A stretch of DNA of 64,000 nucleotides from Candidatus Binataceae bacterium. GTDB taxonomy: Bacteria; Desulfobacterota; Binatia; Binatales; Binataceae. Location of the stretch: contig DATKPK010000134.1 of assembly GCA_035524095.1 (NCBI GenBank), positions 24,515 through 88,514 of the forward strand. Reading direction: 5' to 3'. Of the stretch, positions 1 to 18,133 are shown one piece after another (within the stretch, counting starts at the first letter, position 1; each line of letters begins with the position of its first letter). Both the position numbers and the translations under genes were made by a program. The notes beneath the pieces were generated by a model, which worked only from the letters and a program-made list of their open reading frames with translations, had not been told where the DNA came from and did no database searches.

Positions 1-344
1 GCCCGCACCGTCCTCCCTGTGTAGAGCACGTCATCGACCAGCACCAACCGCCGTCCTTCCAACTCGAATGGAATGTCTCGCCCGAGCAGGCGTGGATCGC
101 CGGGTGCTCCACGCCCGTCATCGCGGTACGATGAAATATCGAGAGTGCCCAAAGCGACTTCGGCCGCACCTTGCTCGCGCAATAATGCAGCTAGGCGCTC
201 CGCCAGACAGGCCCCGCGCCGAACGATGCCGATCAACGCGAGGCTTTGCGCACCGTCGTTATGCTCACCAATCTCATGCGCTATCCGCCGCACGCAGCGG
301 CCAACCGCGTCGCTATCAAGTGCGGACGATTCCGGCGGGGTCAT
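1..344 (-). CDS. pyrR: Bifunctional pyr operon regulator / uracil phosphoribosyltransferase PyrR (C-terminal part lies off the left edge of the window)
   Basis: Reverse translation from the ATG at 342-344 gives MTPPESSALDSDAVGRCVRRIAHEIGEHNDG...LVLVDDVLYTGRTVRA. This includes the PRTase motif VDDVLYTGRT and the PyrR-like N-terminus. The gene runs off the window start. Confidence 0.7.
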   Translation of the reverse strand, partial: MTPPESSALDSDAVGRCVRRIAHEIGEHNDGAQSLALIGIVRRGACLAERLAALLREQGAAEVALGTLDISSYRDDGRGAPGDPRLLGRDIPFELEGRRLVLVDDVLYTGRTVR

Positions 345-665
345 CGGTCAACGTCCTGGAGTGCTGAGCAGGCCCGTTGAAGACAAAAAAATACCGGCGC
401 ACCACTGCCGCCGGTCAAAATTCCTGATTCAATCATGTCGCTTTACCTTCTCGCCCTCGCAGGAGCGAATTTAAAGGCAACTCAAATCTAACGGCGCAGG
501 TTCAGCCGGTCAACGCGCTTTCGCCCAGAGCCGCTTCGTATCCGGTGAGTTATCGACAGCGCTTCGCGACTCTCTGATCTAATTTGACGCACCGTCGCTT
601 ATCGAAGGGCCGTATATCGATTAGGCAATCAACACCACTCTCTCGTTCATTCACCCCGCGCGATC

Positions 666-1373
666 TTAGGCCCGACGTTCGAGCTTGCGCAGTCGCTGGT
701 CTTGATCTTTGGTCTGAACGGTAATCCGATCGTCGAAGCGCTCGAACTTGCGTGCCAAACTGGTCAGCGTCTTGTTCGTTTGCTTCAACTCGGCGTCGAA
801 CTTCTTGACCATTGTGCCCGCTGACGCCGTGATTCCCGAATTAATATCCGCCGCTGCCGCCGGCAGTTCACGGCCCAAATCGCCCCGCACCGCCGCCAGT
901 TCGCTGCGCAAATTTTCGTTGGCCGCGCCGATTTCGCGGCTCAATTCCGCGCGCAAATCAGCCATCGAGCGCGTTAGCTGCGACGCGACGAATTCGCGGC
1001 TGCGTTCCGCTTCGGCCGCCGTTTCGCGTCGCAGTTCGTCCCGTACGCTGGCGAATTCTTCTCTGAAATGAACTCGCGTGCCCCCTAGATGCTCCCCGAT
1101 TCGCACCATCTCAGCCCCCAAATCAGCCCGCACCCCAGCTATCGCGTCGCGATTCTCGGCAATTCTGTCGGATAAGAACCGAATCTGCCGCCCGACTTCG
1201 GTGAACTGTCCGACCATCTCCTGGCGCAATGCTTCGAGCCGGCCACCAAAACCGGTGACGGCTTCAAGTACGAGGTCGAAGCGCGCGCCGAGTTGCTCCA
1301 TGATCGCGCCGATCTTGCGAACATCCTCGGCCACTCCTCCCGCCTCCTCCTTCACACTCACCTCTTCATCCAC
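666..1373 (-). CDS. Hypothetical amphipathic-helix protein built of 11-residue repeats (apolipoprotein/LEA/phasin-like periodicity)
   Basis: 235-aa ORF with clear 11-mer periodicity, e.g. ADLRAELSREI / GAANENLRSEL / AAVRGDLGREL and earlier LEALRQEMVGQ / FTEVGRQIRFL. It has no TM segment and no signal peptide. It lies between lepB and pyrR on the same strand. Confidence 0.6.
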   Translation of the reverse strand: MDEEVSVKEEAGGVAEDVRKIGAIMEQLGARFDLVLEAVTGFGGRLEALRQEMVGQFTEVGRQIRFLSDRIAENRDAIAGVRADLGAEMVRIGEHLGGTRVHFREEFASVRDELRRETAAEAERSREFVASQLTRSMADLRAELSREIGAANENLRSELAAVRGDLGRELPAAAADINSGITASAGTMVKKFDAELKQTNKTLTSLARKFERFDDRITVQTKDQDQRLRKLERRA

Positions 1374-12993: not shown

Positions 12994-14241
12994 ATGAACA
13001 ACGAAATCACTCAGGTTGACGAAAAAAATCGCTGGCGGCTCGAAACTCCCGGCCACGACGGCTGGCCGCGTACCGCTCGCCCCGAGGACCCCGCCAAGTA
13101 CCTGATGATTTCGGCTGACTGCCACGCCAACGAGCCGAGCACGCTTATGTATCAGCGTATCGATGAGAAATTCCGCAACCGTCTCCCGCATATCGAAGTC
13201 GATGACAAAGGTCAAAAGTGGATGGTCGTCGAGGGCTATCAGCGTTCGCGCGTCCGTCCGGTCACCACCGACGACGCGCCCAAAGGCGGCGAAGACCGCC
13301 TGCGTGGCCACGCCGGACGCGACCCGCTCGACCGTATCCGCGATCACGCGCGTGACGGCATCGATGCCGAGATCGTCTTTCCCAACAAAGGCCTCTCGAT
13401 TTGGGCCACTCAGGACGCCGAGTTCGGCAACGCGCAATGCCGCGTCTGGAATGATTGGGCCTGGGAAAACTTCGGCCAATACAACGACTTCATGTCACCG
13501 ATGGCGGCCATCTTCACTTCTGACGTTGATCTGGCCATCGCCGAAATTCAGCGCGTCGCGAAAATCGGTTTCCGCGGCCTGACCCTGCCGTGCAAGCCCG
13601 TATGGGGTGCGCACGACGCGCGTCATCCCAATTACAATCTCGATCTTTACAATCCGCTGTGGGCGGCGATTCAGGACTGCGACATTCCGATCACCTTCCA
13701 CGTCTCGACCGGCCGCGATCCCCGCGCCGCCCGCAAAGATGGCGGTGCGATCATCAACTATGTCTCCCATTCGCTCTCGCCCACGATTGAGCCGGTCGCC
13801 AATCTCTGTGCCTCAGGCGTGCTCGAGCGCTACCCGCGAATTAAGTTCGCTGCCGTTGAATGCGGTATCGGATGGGTTCCATGGGCGCTCAATGCGATGG
13901 ACGAGGCTTATCGCAAGCATCACCTGTGGGCCTTCCCAAAACTGAAGCATCTGCCGAGTGACTATTTTCGGAGTAATGGCGCCGCGACCTTTCAGGAAGA
14001 TCCCGCCGGCCTCGATCTGGCTGTAAAGTATAATCTGGTTGATAATTTCATGTGGGCGAATGACTATCCCCATGCGGAAGGCACATGGCCCCATTCCGCC
14101 GAAGCGATCGAGCGCGAGATGGGCGCGTTGAACGACGATCAGCGCGCGAAGATTCTCGGCCTCAACGCAGCGCGGATGTTCAAGTTCGACACCGCGAAAC
14201 TCCTCGCCCGCCGCTCCTCGACCCACGCCGCGGTTCAGTAA
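12994..14241 (+). CDS. Amidohydrolase-2 family protein (ACMSD-like metal-dependent hydrolase/decarboxylase)
   Basis: 415 aa with a TIM-barrel amidohydrolase_2 pattern: His-containing motifs (CHANEPS, FHVSTG) and a conserved Asp near the C-terminus (ANDYPHAEG). Confidence 0.75.
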   Translation: MNNEITQVDEKNRWRLETPGHDGWPRTARPEDPAKYLMISADCHANEPSTLMYQRIDEKFRNRLPHIEVDDKGQKWMVVEGYQRSRVRPVTTDDAPKGGEDRLRGHAGRDPLDRIRDHARDGIDAEIVFPNKGLSIWATQDAEFGNAQCRVWNDWAWENFGQYNDFMSPMAAIFTSDVDLAIAEIQRVAKIGFRGLTLPCKPVWGAHDARHPNYNLDLYNPLWAAIQDCDIPITFHVSTGRDPRAARKDGGAIINYVSHSLSPTIEPVANLCASGVLERYPRIKFAAVECGIGWVPWALNAMDEAYRKHHLWAFPKLKHLPSDYFRSNGAATFQEDPAGLDLAVKYNLVDNFMWANDYPHAEGTWPHSAEAIEREMGALNDDQRAKILGLNAARMFKFDTAKLLARRSSTHAAVQ

Positions 14242-14286
14242 CGGCGCAGCGTCATCTGGTAGAAAATCCAGCGGCAGCAAAATCCA

Positions 14287-14322
14287 CGCAACCGAATCGC
14301 CTATGCGGTTCGGTTGCGTTTA
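14287..14322 (+). terminator. Rho-independent terminator after the amidohydrolase gene
   Basis: Perfect 10-bp inverted repeat CGCAACCGAA / TTCGGTTGCG with a 12-nt loop, followed by TTTAA. Confidence 0.5.
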
Positions 14323-14416
14323 ACTCCAGCCATGTCATTCTATTGCGCGATGCAGCCGCGAGACGCATTTTCAGGCGCACGGCTCATCACATTAGCTAGA
14401 TGATTGGGGGTTTACC

Positions 14417-14875
14417 TTGTCGCGCGTGATCCGATTTTTCTCTTCGCTCGGTATCGTGTTTCTCCTCGGCGGCATTCTTGCTCCGCTCGCCCAGGCGCAG
14501 TCCGAACCGCCTGACGTCTTTCAGCCACCCAACATGCAGGCGCCCACATCCGGTAAGGCAGATTTCATGCGCAACTGCGCCTCATGCCACGGCGCCAACG
14601 GCAAGGGCCACGGTCCCGACGTTGCTGCCCTCGGCATCAAGCCCAGCGACTTGACCGCGATCAGCTTGCGTAACGGTGGCGTCTTCCCCTTCAAACAGGT
14701 CGAGAACGACATCGACGGCCGCAAGACCGTCCCGGGCCACAAGCGTTTCGATATGCCGTTTTGGGGCACCACCTTCCAGCCCGACGGCAAAGAGTTCACG
14801 CCCGAAAGCGAGGCCAAGGTCCAAGCCCGCATCGACGCACTCGTCAACTACATCAAGTCCATCCAGCGCCAATAA
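14417..14875 (+). CDS. Secreted c-type cytochrome
   Basis: Signal peptide, heme-binding CASCHG motif and a distal Met ligand region. 152 aa. Confidence 0.8.
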   Translation: MSRVIRFFSSLGIVFLLGGILAPLAQAQSEPPDVFQPPNMQAPTSGKADFMRNCASCHGANGKGHGPDVAALGIKPSDLTAISLRNGGVFPFKQVENDIDGRKTVPGHKRFDMPFWGTTFQPDGKEFTPESEAKVQARIDALVNYIKSIQRQ

Positions 14876-15400
14876 GTGGAGCGAACTCGTATGGCATGGA
14901 GTGCCCCCCTCACAGTCCATCAGCTCCTGCAGCGAGTCATCGACCATCGCCTAACCTGGCCCGACTCTGCGATTTGGCCAATCCAACCGCGCGGCGTGTA
15001 TCTTGTCTCGGAGCATCCGTGGGCCTTCTACCCAAACCCAAACTTAATGAGCACTCCTAGGGATCCTCTTGTTAGGTATGTAGGCAAGAGCGACGCGAAA
15101 ACGCCTCAGTTCGCCGCTAGGTTTGGCCAGTTGGTGATAGGGCTCGCTGGTTATGGGGACCGAACTTGGATTGGCCACCAAGGCGCGTACAACCTTCTTG
15201 AGTACGTCAGCTGGGAAAATCCTATCATTAATCCGCTGAATTTTTACGTCGCTTGGCGTACCGATTACGTTTGCCCAAGCTGTGCAGAGATCGGACTATA
15301 CGGATGGTTCAGGTGCAGCTTAAAACAAAAAAGACCTCGCCGCTGTGCTAGCCACAACCCTTCGTATCACATGACGGCGACTCTGGAATTGGAGCACTAA
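14876..15400 (+). CDS. Hypothetical protein in a low-GC insert; weak GIY-YIG-like (GVY...YVGKS) and C-terminal Cys-cluster features
   Basis: 174-aa ORF exactly filling the gap between the cytochrome c gene and glyA. GC drops to roughly 47-50 % from about 15000 onward. The composition is protein-like (W/Y rich). A CPSC...C...C cluster lies near the C-terminus. An alternative ATG start is at 14891. Confidence 0.45.
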   Translation: MERTRMAWSAPLTVHQLLQRVIDHRLTWPDSAIWPIQPRGVYLVSEHPWAFYPNPNLMSTPRDPLVRYVGKSDAKTPQFAARFGQLVIGLAGYGDRTWIGHQGAYNLLEYVSWENPIINPLNFYVAWRTDYVCPSCAEIGLYGWFRCSLKQKRPRRCASHNPSYHMTATLELEH

Positions 15401-15412
15401 ACACTCTTCTAT

Positions 15413-16684
15413 TTAGTTCAGCAAGCCGGGCGTCGGGAAGCGACGCGCAAACGCCTGTACCTCATCTGCGATACGTGCGATCACTGCCTCGTCATCAACA
15501 TGGCCAATGACCTCATCCATCCACGCCGCTATTGTGCGCATGTCCGCCTCACCCATCGCGCGCGAAGTCACCGCGGGTGTCCCCAGGCGAATTCCGCTCG
15601 GGCTGAATGGTTTTCGTGGATCGTACGGCACTGTGTTGTAATTACAGACGATCCCCGCGCGGTCCAGCGCCTTCGCAGCTTTCTTGCCGATAACGCCCTT
15701 GTTCGTCAGATCCACCAGCACGAGATGGTTATCCGTTCCACCTGAAACCACGCCGAAGCCACGCGCCATCAGTTCAGCCGCCAGCGCCTTCGCATTGGCT
15801 ACGACCTGCCGTCCGTATTGCTTGAACTCTGGTGTCGCCGCTTCCTTCAACGCGACCGCAATCGCGGCCGTCGTATGGTTATGCGGGCCGCCTTGCAGTC
15901 CCGGAAAGACCGCCTTATCAATCGCCGCCGCATGCTCCTGCTTGCACAGGATCATTGCACCGCGTGGTCCGCGCAGCGTCTTATGGGTCGTCGTCATCAC
16001 GACGTCCGCATAGGGCACCGGGTCCGGATGCATCCCCGCCACGACCAATCCCGCAATATGTGAAATGTCGGCCAGCAGATACGCACCAACTTCCTTCGCG
16101 ATCTCACTGAAAATCTTGAAGTCGAACTGGCGCGGATAGGCGGTAGCACCGGTCACAATAATCTTCGGCCGTTCCTTGCGCGCGAGGTCCCGCACCGCGT
16201 CATAGTCAATCCTTTGTGTTTCGCGATCGACTACGTAATGAATCGGCCGCCAGAACGATCCGGTGATGCTGACGTTCCATCCATGCGTCAGATGGCCACC
16301 CATCGGCAGCGCCAGACCCATCAGGCCGTCGCCCGGTTTGAGCAGCGCAAAATAGATTGCCAGATTCGCTGGCGATCCCGAATACGGCTGAACGTTCGCA
16401 TGTTCGGCTCCGAACAGCGCCTTGGCTCGCTCGACCGCGATCGTCTCGATCTCGTCGATATAGCGCTGACCTTCGTAGTAGCGCTTATGCGCGTAACCCT
16501 CCGAGTATTTATTCGCGAGGATTGAACCGGTCGCTTCGAGCACCGCTTTCGAGACGTAATTCTCCGACGGAATCAGGCGCACCGAATCGACCTCGTAGTG
16601 CTCCTCTTCCTTGATCAGATTGTATATTTCGGGATCGGTCCGCCTTAGTTCGTCCACGCCGCCATCTCCGTCGAGACTAATCAC
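15413..16684 (-). CDS. glyA: Serine hydroxymethyltransferase
   Basis: RLIPSENYVSKAVLEATGS motif and the PLP-lysine region TTTHKTLRGPRG. 423 aa. Confidence 0.95.
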   Translation of the reverse strand: MISLDGDGGVDELRRTDPEIYNLIKEEEHYEVDSVRLIPSENYVSKAVLEATGSILANKYSEGYAHKRYYEGQRYIDEIETIAVERAKALFGAEHANVQPYSGSPANLAIYFALLKPGDGLMGLALPMGGHLTHGWNVSITGSFWRPIHYVVDRETQRIDYDAVRDLARKERPKIIVTGATAYPRQFDFKIFSEIAKEVGAYLLADISHIAGLVVAGMHPDPVPYADVVMTTTHKTLRGPRGAMILCKQEHAAAIDKAVFPGLQGGPHNHTTAAIAVALKEAATPEFKQYGRQVVANAKALAAELMARGFGVVSGGTDNHLVLVDLTNKGVIGKKAAKALDRAGIVCNYNTVPYDPRKPFSPSGIRLGTPAVTSRAMGEADMRTIAAWMDEVIGHVDDEAVIARIADEVQAFARRFPTPGLLN

Positions 16685-16765
16685 TAGAGCCTAACGGCGC
16701 GCCCGCCCTAAGGCAAAGGGGGCTTTCTCAAGGGGGCAAACTATGTGCCCGCGGATGGTTCGCGG

Positions 16766-18133
16766 CTAATGCAAATCGGGCGGCGTCATTTTCTTGACCC
16801 AACCGCGATAGCTGCCGTCGTATCCGACCGCCGCCTGCCGCTCCCGCACCAGCTTCTCGATTCGCCCGATCGCTTCTGGCGTCAGTCCCGCGCGATGCTC
16901 GACGTCGGCCGCCATTGCCTCCGCCTCCGCCGCGGCTTCGCGCCGGGCTAGTTCGCTGAGCTCAAACCGCGCACCGTCTTCGGCCAATCCCAGGTACTGT
17001 TCCGCCACATGAATTCCGATATGTGTGCCGCTCACCAGCGAATCCTTGATATTGCCCTTGCCGGTCAGCACGTTACCCGACGCGTAAACCGCCGTCCGTC
17101 CTTCCAGCACGAGGCCGACGTTCTGCTCAACATAACGGTACACTTCACCCGCCTGTGGAATCCCCGGTATCGCCTCAGGAATACTGCCGATTGAGCTGAT
17201 CGTCATCGGCCCGGTGACATCGTATTCACTGCCCGCGAGCTTACGCGCCTTGCCCTCGATTACTTCTGTCCGCGTCATCTGGATTCCGGTCAGCCGCCCG
17301 TCCTTGACCATCAACCCGGTCGGCATATTCTGATCATGGAACTCGAACAGAAACTTACGCTGTGCCTTGTCGAGAATCTTGCTCCGCGCCGCCCTCAGCG
17401 ATTCCGCTCGCTTGGCCGGCGTTCCTTCCGGAATATCCGATAACGGCATATCGAGCACGCGCCGCCGATAGAACAACTTACACGACTCGATACCAAGGTC
17501 CGCCCACGCCAGTCCGTGACTTTTCAGCACTGGCTCGATTCCTTCGCGTTCGAGCCGCAGCATATCTTCCCTGATCCCGCGCTGCCTGAGCCCGGCCAGC
17601 GCCATCTCGATCTGCAACACTTTGACCACGTCAATTGACGCGAGTCCGCCGCCAATCACTATCGTCCCCGGCTCCAGCCGATAGCGCGGACCGTCATACC
17701 CGGCTTCCGGATAATGGTTAAACCAGTAGATCAGCGGGTTCTGATAGACCAAGCCCTTATCGACGTAGTGATCGGCCCCGTCGACTGGAAACGGCCGGTC
17801 GCGCCACGCGCCGTTCGCCAGCACAATCGCGTTCAGCCCCCAGCTTTGGCGCAATTCCTCGAATTCCAGGTCACGGCCCATCCGCGTTAGCGGCAGATAT
17901 AGGATATTCGGATTGTCGAGGCGGCGGTTGATCTCTTCATACTCGTCCAGCCGTTGCTTGACGTGCCAGCGCGGCAACCCATCCTCGATTTTCCCGTAAG
18001 GACGCGGGTTCTGTTCAATCACTATCACCAGCGCACCGCGGCCGGCGAATACCCGGGCGACCTCCGAGCCGGCGGTGGCTCCTCCGATTACAGCGACAAC
18101 ATGGCGGCGACTGGTTTTGTTGGTTTCTGCCAT
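16766..18133 (-). CDS. FAD/NAD(P)-binding oxidoreductase (adrenodoxin-reductase / FprA-like or glutamate-synthase small-subunit-like)
   Basis: Rossmann GxGxxG motif HVVAVIGGATAG twelve residues after the Met at 18133, and a second dinucleotide motif IVIGGGLASID. The ORF track extends to 18256; the internal ATG at 18131-18133 gives a canonical N-terminus. Confidence 0.7.
   Translation of the reverse strand: MAETNKTSRRHVVAVIGGATAGSEVARVFAGRGALVIVIEQNPRPYGKIEDGLPRWHVKQRLDEYEEINRRLDNPNILYLPLTRMGRDLEFEELRQSWGLNAIVLANGAWRDRPFPVDGADHYVDKGLVYQNPLIYWFNHYPEAGYDGPRYRLEPGTIVIGGGLASIDVVKVLQIEMALAGLRQRGIREDMLRLEREGIEPVLKSHGLAWADLGIESCKLFYRRRVLDMPLSDIPEGTPAKRAESLRAARSKILDKAQRKFLFEFHDQNMPTGLMVKDGRLTGIQMTRTEVIEGKARKLAGSEYDVTGPMTISSIGSIPEAIPGIPQAGEVYRYVEQNVGLVLEGRTAVYASGNVLTGKGNIKDSLVSGTHIGIHVAEQYLGLAEDGARFELSELARREAAAEAEAMAADVEHRAGLTPEAIGRIEKLVRERQAAVGYDGSYRGWVKKMTPPDLH

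Follow-up and report, generated by a model that had tools for sequence, protein, structure and literature searches.

Between a cytochrome c gene and the convergent glyA gene of a Candidatus Binataceae bacterium lies a small open reading frame (ORF) whose base composition differs from that of its surroundings, and the question raised by this locus is what the ORF encodes and how it came to occupy the gap. The locus belongs to a stretch of 64,000 nucleotides of contig DATKPK010000134.1 (the window, whose numbering is used throughout), and the relatives of its cytochrome c place the organism in Candidatus Binataceae. We favour, with moderate confidence, the explanation that a working gene for a stand-alone GIY-YIG nuclease reached this site by horizontal transfer and behaves as a single-gene mobile insert, for which a homing-like lifestyle is the best-fitting, if tentative, reading.

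The ORF is a genuine gene under purifying selection and not a chance ORF, since its differences from the sole close homologue, the 72% identical protein P0002 encoded on contig L001, are distributed over the three codon positions as 37/26/92, with a pN/pS of 0.21 (pN 0.165; pS 0.79, synonymous sites being saturated). The initial annotation had judged the ORF to be truly coding, as is borne out by this ratio; its further suggestion of an insertion remnant does not hold, the gene being intact and under purifying selection. It had also described an ORF of 174 amino acids (aa) that fills the convergent gap, starting right after the cytochrome c stop and ending 12 bp short of the glyA stop. These coordinates were confirmed for the mechanical ORF (14876-15400, plus strand, 174 aa counted from GTG), whose GTG at 14876 abuts the cytochrome c stop TAA at 14873-14875 and whose own stop TAA at 15398-15400 is separated by 12 bp (15401-15412) from the minus-strand stop of glyA at 15413-15415, but the start codon had to be corrected. 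The true start is almost certainly the ATG at 14891, giving 169 aa, because a GGAG box is present at 14878-14881 and every full-length homologue has 169 aa and begins with M-[AT]-W. The coding sequence of this protein thus spans 14891-15400 on the plus strand, stop codon included, and is preceded by a 15-nt leader (14876-14890, plus strand) that directly follows the cytochrome c stop and holds both the mechanical GTG and the putative ribosome-binding GGAG box. The same GGAG-N9-ATG arrangement is repeated in the homologue on L001.

The protein, its family and its predicted fold

Searches of Pfam, NCBIfam, PADLOC and the PDB sequences with the window protein returned nothing significant, and PHROGs gave noise only. 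When 5.8 billion proteins were searched by a word index, five relatives came up, and an exhaustive HMMER search with a four-sequence profile retrieved 47 proteins, to which a second round added more. About 80 sequences make up the resulting family; their median length is 158 aa, every one is annotated as "hypothetical", and they come from Binatota, Chloroflexota, Planctomycetota and, with Myxococcus, Corallococcus and Stigmatella, Myxococcota. The family consensus reads W.GP…PP..GVY.VS..W..P…LYVG..T…FR.R.GDL.AD..GF…GHHSGG…PLDLY.AW…C.RCAE..L…L.P.LN..P..C..H. A PDB profile search with the family returned only WD40-repeat proteins, which were judged spurious. Two proteins from JGI contigs, P0004 and P0005, have a core identical to that of the window protein and are truncated or altered: one stops short of the second Cys/His pair, and in the other an unrelated N-terminus, without either Tyr motif, stands in place of the usual one. 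These may be decaying copies, or artefacts of gene calling or assembly.

With a 4-sequence alignment, AlphaFold reached a pLDDT of 32; with the 47-sequence family alignment, it gave a confident model (pLDDT 86.8, pTM 0.83) of topology β-β-α-α-β-α, whose sheet of three strands and flanking helices can be superposed on GIY-YIG domains of known structure (scheme b-b-a-(a)-b-a). Structural comparison gave figures of 7.9 for R.Eco29kI, 6.9 for the UvrC N-terminal domain, 6.6 for T4 endonuclease II, 5.9 for I-TevI, 5.8 for the GrxS16 N-domain and 5.1 for PD-T4-3, followed by 3.6 for the next, unrelated hit. Beyond this core, the model shows nothing more than a helix at the N-terminus and a basic Cys/His tail. 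The aligner hhalign, run against a two-sequence I-TevI/UvrC alignment whose reference sequences had been checked against the PDB entries, found a sensible motif register at low probability (E 0.0014, probability 7%), which pairs Y37, Y63, R77, E133 and position 145 of the window protein with Y6, Y17, R27, E75 and N90 of I-TevI. The Pfam GIY-YIG profiles, to which the initial annotation had pointed as a check, are blind to the ORF, and support for the fold came from the structure prediction that had been proposed alongside them. We hold with high confidence that the protein has a GIY-YIG fold, and the family is a previously undescribed, sparse variant of this fold that is missed by current profile libraries.

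Across 83 aligned sequences, the invariant or nearly invariant residues are Y37, Y63, G65, R77, G79, G87, W122, C128, C131, E133, C152 and H155, and most catalytic residues of a GIY-YIG domain, namely both tyrosines, the arginine and the glutamate, are among them. The "GIY" motif is represented by G35-V36-Y37 (14993-15001, plus strand, as are all residues given here), with Y37 present in 81/81 family members and paired with Y6 of I-TevI, and the "YIG" motif by Y63-V64-G65 (15077-15085; Y63 in 82/82, G65 in 81/82). The initial annotation had recognized the same pair as GVY (35-37) and YVGKS (63-67) with 25 residues in between, and its two tyrosines proved to be the two invariant tyrosines of the family; the spacer between them is 25 aa in the window protein and 18 aa in most of the family. 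R77 (15119-15121; 82/82) is the conserved GIY-YIG arginine, aligned to R27 of I-TevI, and the helix 129-139 of the AlphaFold model carries the invariant, putatively metal-binding E133. In a one-metal GIY-YIG mechanism, Tyr37 and Tyr63 on the first two strands would act together with Arg77 on the first helix, while Glu133 would bind the metal. We consider it somewhat probable that the protein is an active nuclease.

The segment C128-P-S-C131-A-E133 (15272-15289) forms a CxxC knuckle at the N-terminus of the Glu helix (C128 in 80/80, C131 in 79/79, E133 in 79/79), and C152-A-S-H155 (15344-15355; C152 in 75/77, H155 in 69/76) lies on its other side, so that a CxxC…CxxH set brackets this helix. 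Because of the near-invariance of this set in the family, C128, C131, C152 and H155 are proposed to form a structural CCCH zinc site, in which the putative zinc would pin the C-terminal tail to the Glu helix. Of the zinc-ribbon-like cysteine cluster suggested initially, all four cysteines (C128, C131, C142 and C152) are present; conservation in the family, where C142 varies, nevertheless points to the CCCH group around the Glu helix and not to a C4 zinc ribbon. A haem-binding or cytochrome-maturation role was considered and rejected, the motif being CxxCAE and not CxxCH and the family never being linked to cytochromes elsewhere.

Foreign composition, empty sites and mosaic flanks

How the gene came to lie where it does can be approached through its composition and through the same locus in relatives. 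The GC content is 53.7% for the ORF, 51.4% for 15000-15400 and 59.2% for the whole window; an equally low GC content is found in just 1.2% of the 400-bp windows across the 64 kb, and the GC content at third codon positions (GC3) of the ORF, 59.4%, is the lowest among the 53 genes of the window (mean 70.0%, standard deviation 3.6). A fall to about 47-50% from about 15000 onward had been noted initially; the drop is real and its size was somewhat overstated, individual 200-bp windows going down to 49%.

The ORF is absent from all of the approximately 20 related Binataceae genomes, and in those that have kept cytochrome c close to glyA, the two are separated by other genes. A closer comparison is provided by L050, a contig of a nearly identical sister strain from the same metagenome sample series, with protein identities of 97.4% for GlyA, 99.6% for the next gene and 95.6% for the end of the amidohydrolase. 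In L050, 74 bp without the ORF separate the stops of cytochrome c and glyA, and in contig L051 the spacer, of about 75 bp, is likewise empty. The similarity between alleles with and without the ORF ends precisely at both stop codons, and six ORF-bearing contigs, drawn from several samples, carry one and the same uninterrupted reading frame. The proposal of an inserted gene, for which a comparison of the relatives' loci had been suggested, thus finds support in the roughly 20 genomes without the ORF and in the two empty spacers. Of the two outcomes named in advance as refuting the initial reading, a lack of fold support and relatives with the same ORF at matching GC, neither was observed. The insertion has to be weighed against the possibility that the ORF belongs to the native gene set, serving the cytochrome c operon or DNA repair as an accessory, and was lost from the ORF-less relatives. 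Its close translational coupling to cytochrome c (15-nt gap, GGAG box), its CxxC and CxxH motifs and its fixed position in all six contigs of the strain would suit such a gene, but it is missing from every related genome checked and from the two close relatives, whose empty spacers hold no ORF remnant, its base composition is foreign, its closest homologue sits in an unrelated context, and the family is never found beside cytochrome c elsewhere; we regard a native origin as very improbable.

The flanks of the ORF differ between alleles as well. Window positions 14088-14214 are 100% identical to L050 1-127, after which the similarity breaks. The left part of the mosaic (14215-14875, plus strand) starts in the final codons of the amidohydrolase and takes in the spacer and cytochrome c, whose allele has 79% DNA identity to that of L050. 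To the right, a first block at the 3' end of glyA (15413-15534, minus strand) differs from L050 at 32 positions and accompanies the ORF in every ORF-bearing contig, and a second glyA block (15653-15845, minus strand) has about 24 differences, mostly at third codon positions. The window differs from L050 at 56 positions in 15413-15812 and at 0 over 16013-17412, and the two are identical beyond about 15900. Divergence extends from 14215 to about 15900 inside DNA that is otherwise identical between the window and L050, and the ORF thus lies in a mosaic patch of recombinational origin, about 1.3-1.6 kb in size. One ORF-bearing contig, L007, combines a window-type first glyA block with an L050-type second block, with 30 mostly third-position differences from the window at positions 15653-15866; it represents either a genuine recombinant that imported a shorter tract or a chimera created by metagenome assembly. 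Several contigs terminate near the point where the strains become identical.

Given the foreign composition, the empty sites, the mosaic flanks and a closest homologue in a different context, a recent horizontal insertion is considered very likely. The ORF would have reached the cytochrome c/glyA spacer of one Binataceae lineage on an imported patch, about 1.3-1.6 kb long, that recombined homologously in the flanking genes. Borders of a transposon, insertion sequence or integron cassette were not found at the locus, where there is no flanking repeat pair and where non-coding DNA amounts to only 15 nt and 12 nt. The interior of the ORF (15089-15106) and the 3' end of glyA (15439-15456) share an 18-nt direct repeat with 17/18 identity, and a comparable match was given by 0/30 codon-shuffled ORFs; three ORF-linked glyA sites within it (15442, 15443 and 15454) differ from the ORF-less allele in a way that raises the similarity of the repeat to the copy in the ORF.

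The spacer has received other genes too. In contig L105, whose GlyA is 94% identical, a Methyltransf_24-like gene of 286 aa and 46% GC (467-1327) occupies the cytochrome c/glyA spacer, the glyA-proximal part of which is otherwise nearly identical to the empty spacer of L051. Because a different low-GC gene is thus carried in a spacer nearly of the L051 type, the cytochrome c/glyA spacer is an insertion hot spot for foreign single genes. L050 itself has, on the other side of cytochrome c, in the amidohydrolase-cytochrome c spacer, a 162-aa gene (262-750, minus strand) with 47% GC and a GC3 of 51.5%. It belongs to an unannotated family of its own with 61 homologues, in which 13/30 members weakly match Pfam GIY-YIG (best E 1.4e-3) and 10/30 match T5orf172, with weak matches to UvrC-N and PADLOC PDC-S14 as well. 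Membership of this gene in the family of the window ORF was rejected, the family HMM giving no match and hhalign a probability of 2%.

The genes around the insertion were assigned by Pfam as Amidohydro_2 (12994-14241), Cytochrome c (14417-14875) and SHMT, i.e., glyA (15413-16684, minus strand), and the spacer between the amidohydrolase and cytochrome c measures 175 bp in the window. The ORF is probably co-transcribed with cytochrome c, and it would be expressed from the cytochrome c transcript. The earlier remark that the tight packing leaves no space for terminators agrees with the finding that neither terminator-like nor promoter-like sites were detected in 14200-15700 or in the L050 spacer; an Rfam scan of 14000-15800 gave no match. 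A palindrome, ACTAAA-N10-TTTAGT (15396-15418), pairs the stop codon of the ORF with that of glyA across the 12-bp spacer (15401-15412, assigned to neither strand), and palindrome and spacer fold no more stably than shuffled sequence. GC skew is negative in nearly all 1-kb bins of the 64-kb window regardless of gene orientation (cumulative -8.9), and the plus strand of the window is therefore probably the lagging-strand template throughout.

Contexts of the family and the lifestyle of the gene

The DNA similarity between the window and L001 is confined to 14883-15401. A tyrosine integrase gene (PF00589, 8e-22) ends 28 bp upstream of the L001 copy, in a low-GC island, the copy having 50% GC and the integrase gene 62%; a second family member is likewise preceded by an integrase. 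Adjacent to the integrase-ORF pair of that contig, L001 3430-11078 contains genes for BrxC/BrxD-like, BrxD/SngB-like and HerA/mad8-like ATPases and several proteins without a family, and looks like a defence island. In Myxococcus sp. AM011, a contractile-tail-like cluster (PhageMin_Tail, CIS_tube, Phage_T4_gp19) contains a member that runs against its neighbours, and the same opposite-strand arrangement is seen in two IMG/VR viral contigs, one of them near an SU10-type capsid-like gene (E 4.9e-5); the opposite-strand members are located at L125 5001-5474, L128 5001-5438 and L126 5001-5420. Other members whose contexts were examined stand alone between housekeeping genes, and no partner gene recurs across the contexts examined. 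A restriction enzyme was rejected as an identity for the protein, there being no adjacent methyltransferase at the window locus or at the family loci examined (L001, L039, L045, L047, L122, L123 and L125).

These contexts bear on the possibility that the gene is passive cargo, i.e., a host-beneficial anti-phage or anti-plasmid nuclease (a "moron" or defence-island gene) that is moved by islands, integrases and homologous recombination and does not owe its spread to its own cleavage. The integrase-linked closest homologue, in its island of BrxC/BrxD-, BrxD/SngB- and HerA/mad8-like ATPases, is what would be expected of such cargo, as are the moron-like, opposite-strand positions of several members in prophage-like structural modules and the purifying selection on the gene. 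On the other hand, most contexts are housekeeping neighbourhoods and not defence islands, no partner such as a methyltransferase or an immunity protein recurs, PADLOC-DB 2.0 gave no match for the window protein or three other members (P0078, P0053, P0059), and tight, promoter-less packing in a housekeeping operon is atypical of regulated toxic defence nucleases. We consider passive cargo, the strongest of the rival readings, unlikely, and favour the mobile single-gene nuclease, for which a homing-like lifestyle is the best fit.

Several observations weigh against the favoured explanation as a whole. With respect to the insertion, ordinary homologous recombination would produce a mosaic patch just as readily, the imported allele could be the one in L050 and not that of the window, and every comparison draws on metagenome assemblies, where chimeras of strains arise (e.g., L007). 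The target-site signatures that had been thought possible initially did not appear, neither target-site duplication nor terminal repeats being found at the ORF borders, and tRNA genes as integration targets were found neither in the window nor in 10 loci. With respect to mobility, phage and plasmid databases gave no match to the window protein or P0078, scans of viral contigs with single proteins gave none either, and a 12-sequence core alignment found only 3 loci in 2.9 million viral contigs. With respect to the fold, no curated GIY-YIG sequence model recognizes the window protein (Pfam 0 families, NCBIfam none), the 47 family members yielded one PF01541 match at E 0.23 and one PF20815 match at E 0.17, and Foldseek was not significant against the PDB (best E 2.6) or against BFVD (best E 0.03), Eco29kI and GIY-YIG phage proteins being among its weak matches. 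In addition, the 169-aa protein lacks a NUMOD, a helix-turn-helix or any other separate DNA-binding module, in which it differs from SegA-G of T4-like phages. Finally, the active site departs from the canonical one. The characteristic GIY-YIG Asn position, expected 12-15 residues after the Glu and filled by Asn in 69/78 members, is occupied by K145 (15323-15325) in the window protein and its three closest relatives; there is no His or Tyr four residues after the arginine (Arg+4), position 81 being Leu in 75/83 sequences; and of the conserved family histidines, which lie 18-19 residues past the arginine in a GHHSGG loop, the window clade has lost one and retains only H96 (15176-15178). Activity may be altered or lost as a result of these departures.

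The last group of observations leads to the possibility of a decaying or catalytically dead copy, either a former selfish nuclease that drifts after fixation or a protein kept only for DNA binding. The change from Asn to Lys, the loss of one His and of the Asp after Gly79, the 7-aa insertion between the two tyrosines and the truncated or N-terminally unrelated state of the near-identical P0004 and P0005 all point in this direction, and Asn mutants of R.Eco29kI keep only about 10% activity (PMC1952068). Slx1-type GIY-YIG enzymes, however, work without the Asn (PMC1564403), and in the window protein Y37, Y63, R77, H96, E133 and all four putative zinc ligands are kept, in a frame that six contigs from several samples share unbroken and unchanged and that has a pN/pS of 0.21 over saturated synonymous divergence. 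A dead copy is accordingly rather improbable, and a functional nuclease remains the preferred view of the protein.

As for its lifestyle, the targets of a selfish nuclease would be alleles without the ORF, or else a conserved gene close by, and repair of the break would copy the ORF in together with its flanks. By analogy with known systems, self-promoted spread of this kind would account for the locus, and we put forward homing-like self-spread, which the initial annotation had also raised, as a tentative possibility. Doubtful, and broader, is the idea that a new zinc-bearing GIY-YIG family supplies free-standing homing endonucleases to the chromosomes of soil Binatota and of other phyla, and that these spread between strains by cutting ORF-less alleles and being copied in with their flanks. 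The two unrelated GIY-YIG-type genes that flank the same cytochrome c in sister strains could be competing elements, whose activity would explain the 21% divergence of that gene amid otherwise identical DNA.

Homing-type gene drive is well known in phages and organelles. With alleles that carry or lack the ORF, a defined mosaic tract and a second GIY-YIG-like insert, the present locus offers a testable case for such a drive between the chromosomes of soil bacteria. The family adds to the small nucleases that profile libraries miss (about 80 "hypothetical" sequences in at least four phyla), and it suggests that a GIY-YIG core can host an embedded CxxC…CxxH putative metal site and dispense with the His/Tyr at Arg+4. 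If the enzymes are site-specific, they would represent compact new DNA-cutting scaffolds.

Comparison with known GIY-YIG systems

Among the established groups, the Ssn nucleases (cd10448, SsnA) are recognized by standard GIY-YIG models and are typically flanked by hairpin repeats (PMC11893778), neither of which applies to the window gene: there is no intergenic DNA to hold flanking repeats, and the lack of a Pfam GIY-YIG match argues against membership. UvrC/Cho and I-TevI have a canonical Tyr-Tyr spacer of 10-11 residues, in contrast to 18-27 residues in the window family, which in addition possesses the extra GHHSGG loop and the Cys ligands flanking the Glu. At Arg+4, the family lacks the His or Tyr represented by H31 in I-TevI, Y43 in UvrC and H108 in Eco29kI, and, unlike UvrC/Cho, the window protein is not part of a multidomain repair protein. 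COG1833/DUF123 proteins share with it a small GIY-YIG domain followed by conserved Cys/His residues, with a presumed structural metal near the place of the C-terminal Asn (PMC1564403). The window family, however, is not detectably related to them and has no Pfam DUF123 match, two of its ligands precede the Glu and lie inside the core, most of its members keep the Asn, and it is found in bacterial soil phyla, whereas COG1833 is mostly archaeal.

The nearest structure to the window protein is that of R.Eco29kI, a GIY-YIG restriction endonuclease of the Eco29kI/Cfr42I type, which resembles it in the long Tyr-Tyr spacer (Y49-Y76 in Eco29kI, Y37-Y63 in the window protein), in the 12-residue distance from the Glu to the Asn position and in an N-terminal extension before the core (PMC1952068). 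Both are small, stand-alone proteins without a separate DNA-binding domain. The differences lie in the absence of an adjacent methyltransferase from the approximately ten contexts of the window family that were examined, in the lack of detectable sequence similarity (17% identity in the structural alignment), in the missing His at Arg+4 and in the embedded CxxC…CxxH, which is not reported for Eco29kI.

In genetic behaviour, the closest parallel is found in the free-standing GIY-YIG endonuclease genes of phage T4, which lie in spacers between conserved genes and cut a nearby site in genomes without them, the seg genes being inherited together with co-converted flanks (PMC2988022). The window gene differs in residing in a Binatota chromosome and not in a phage and in having no Pfam GIY-YIG match. 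The divergent flanks that accompany it are compatible with a co-conversion tract and also with ordinary recombination. Like SegA-G, it is a lone GIY-YIG-type gene between conserved genes that is present in some close relatives and absent from others, and its expression would come from the promoters of its neighbours (PMC2988022).

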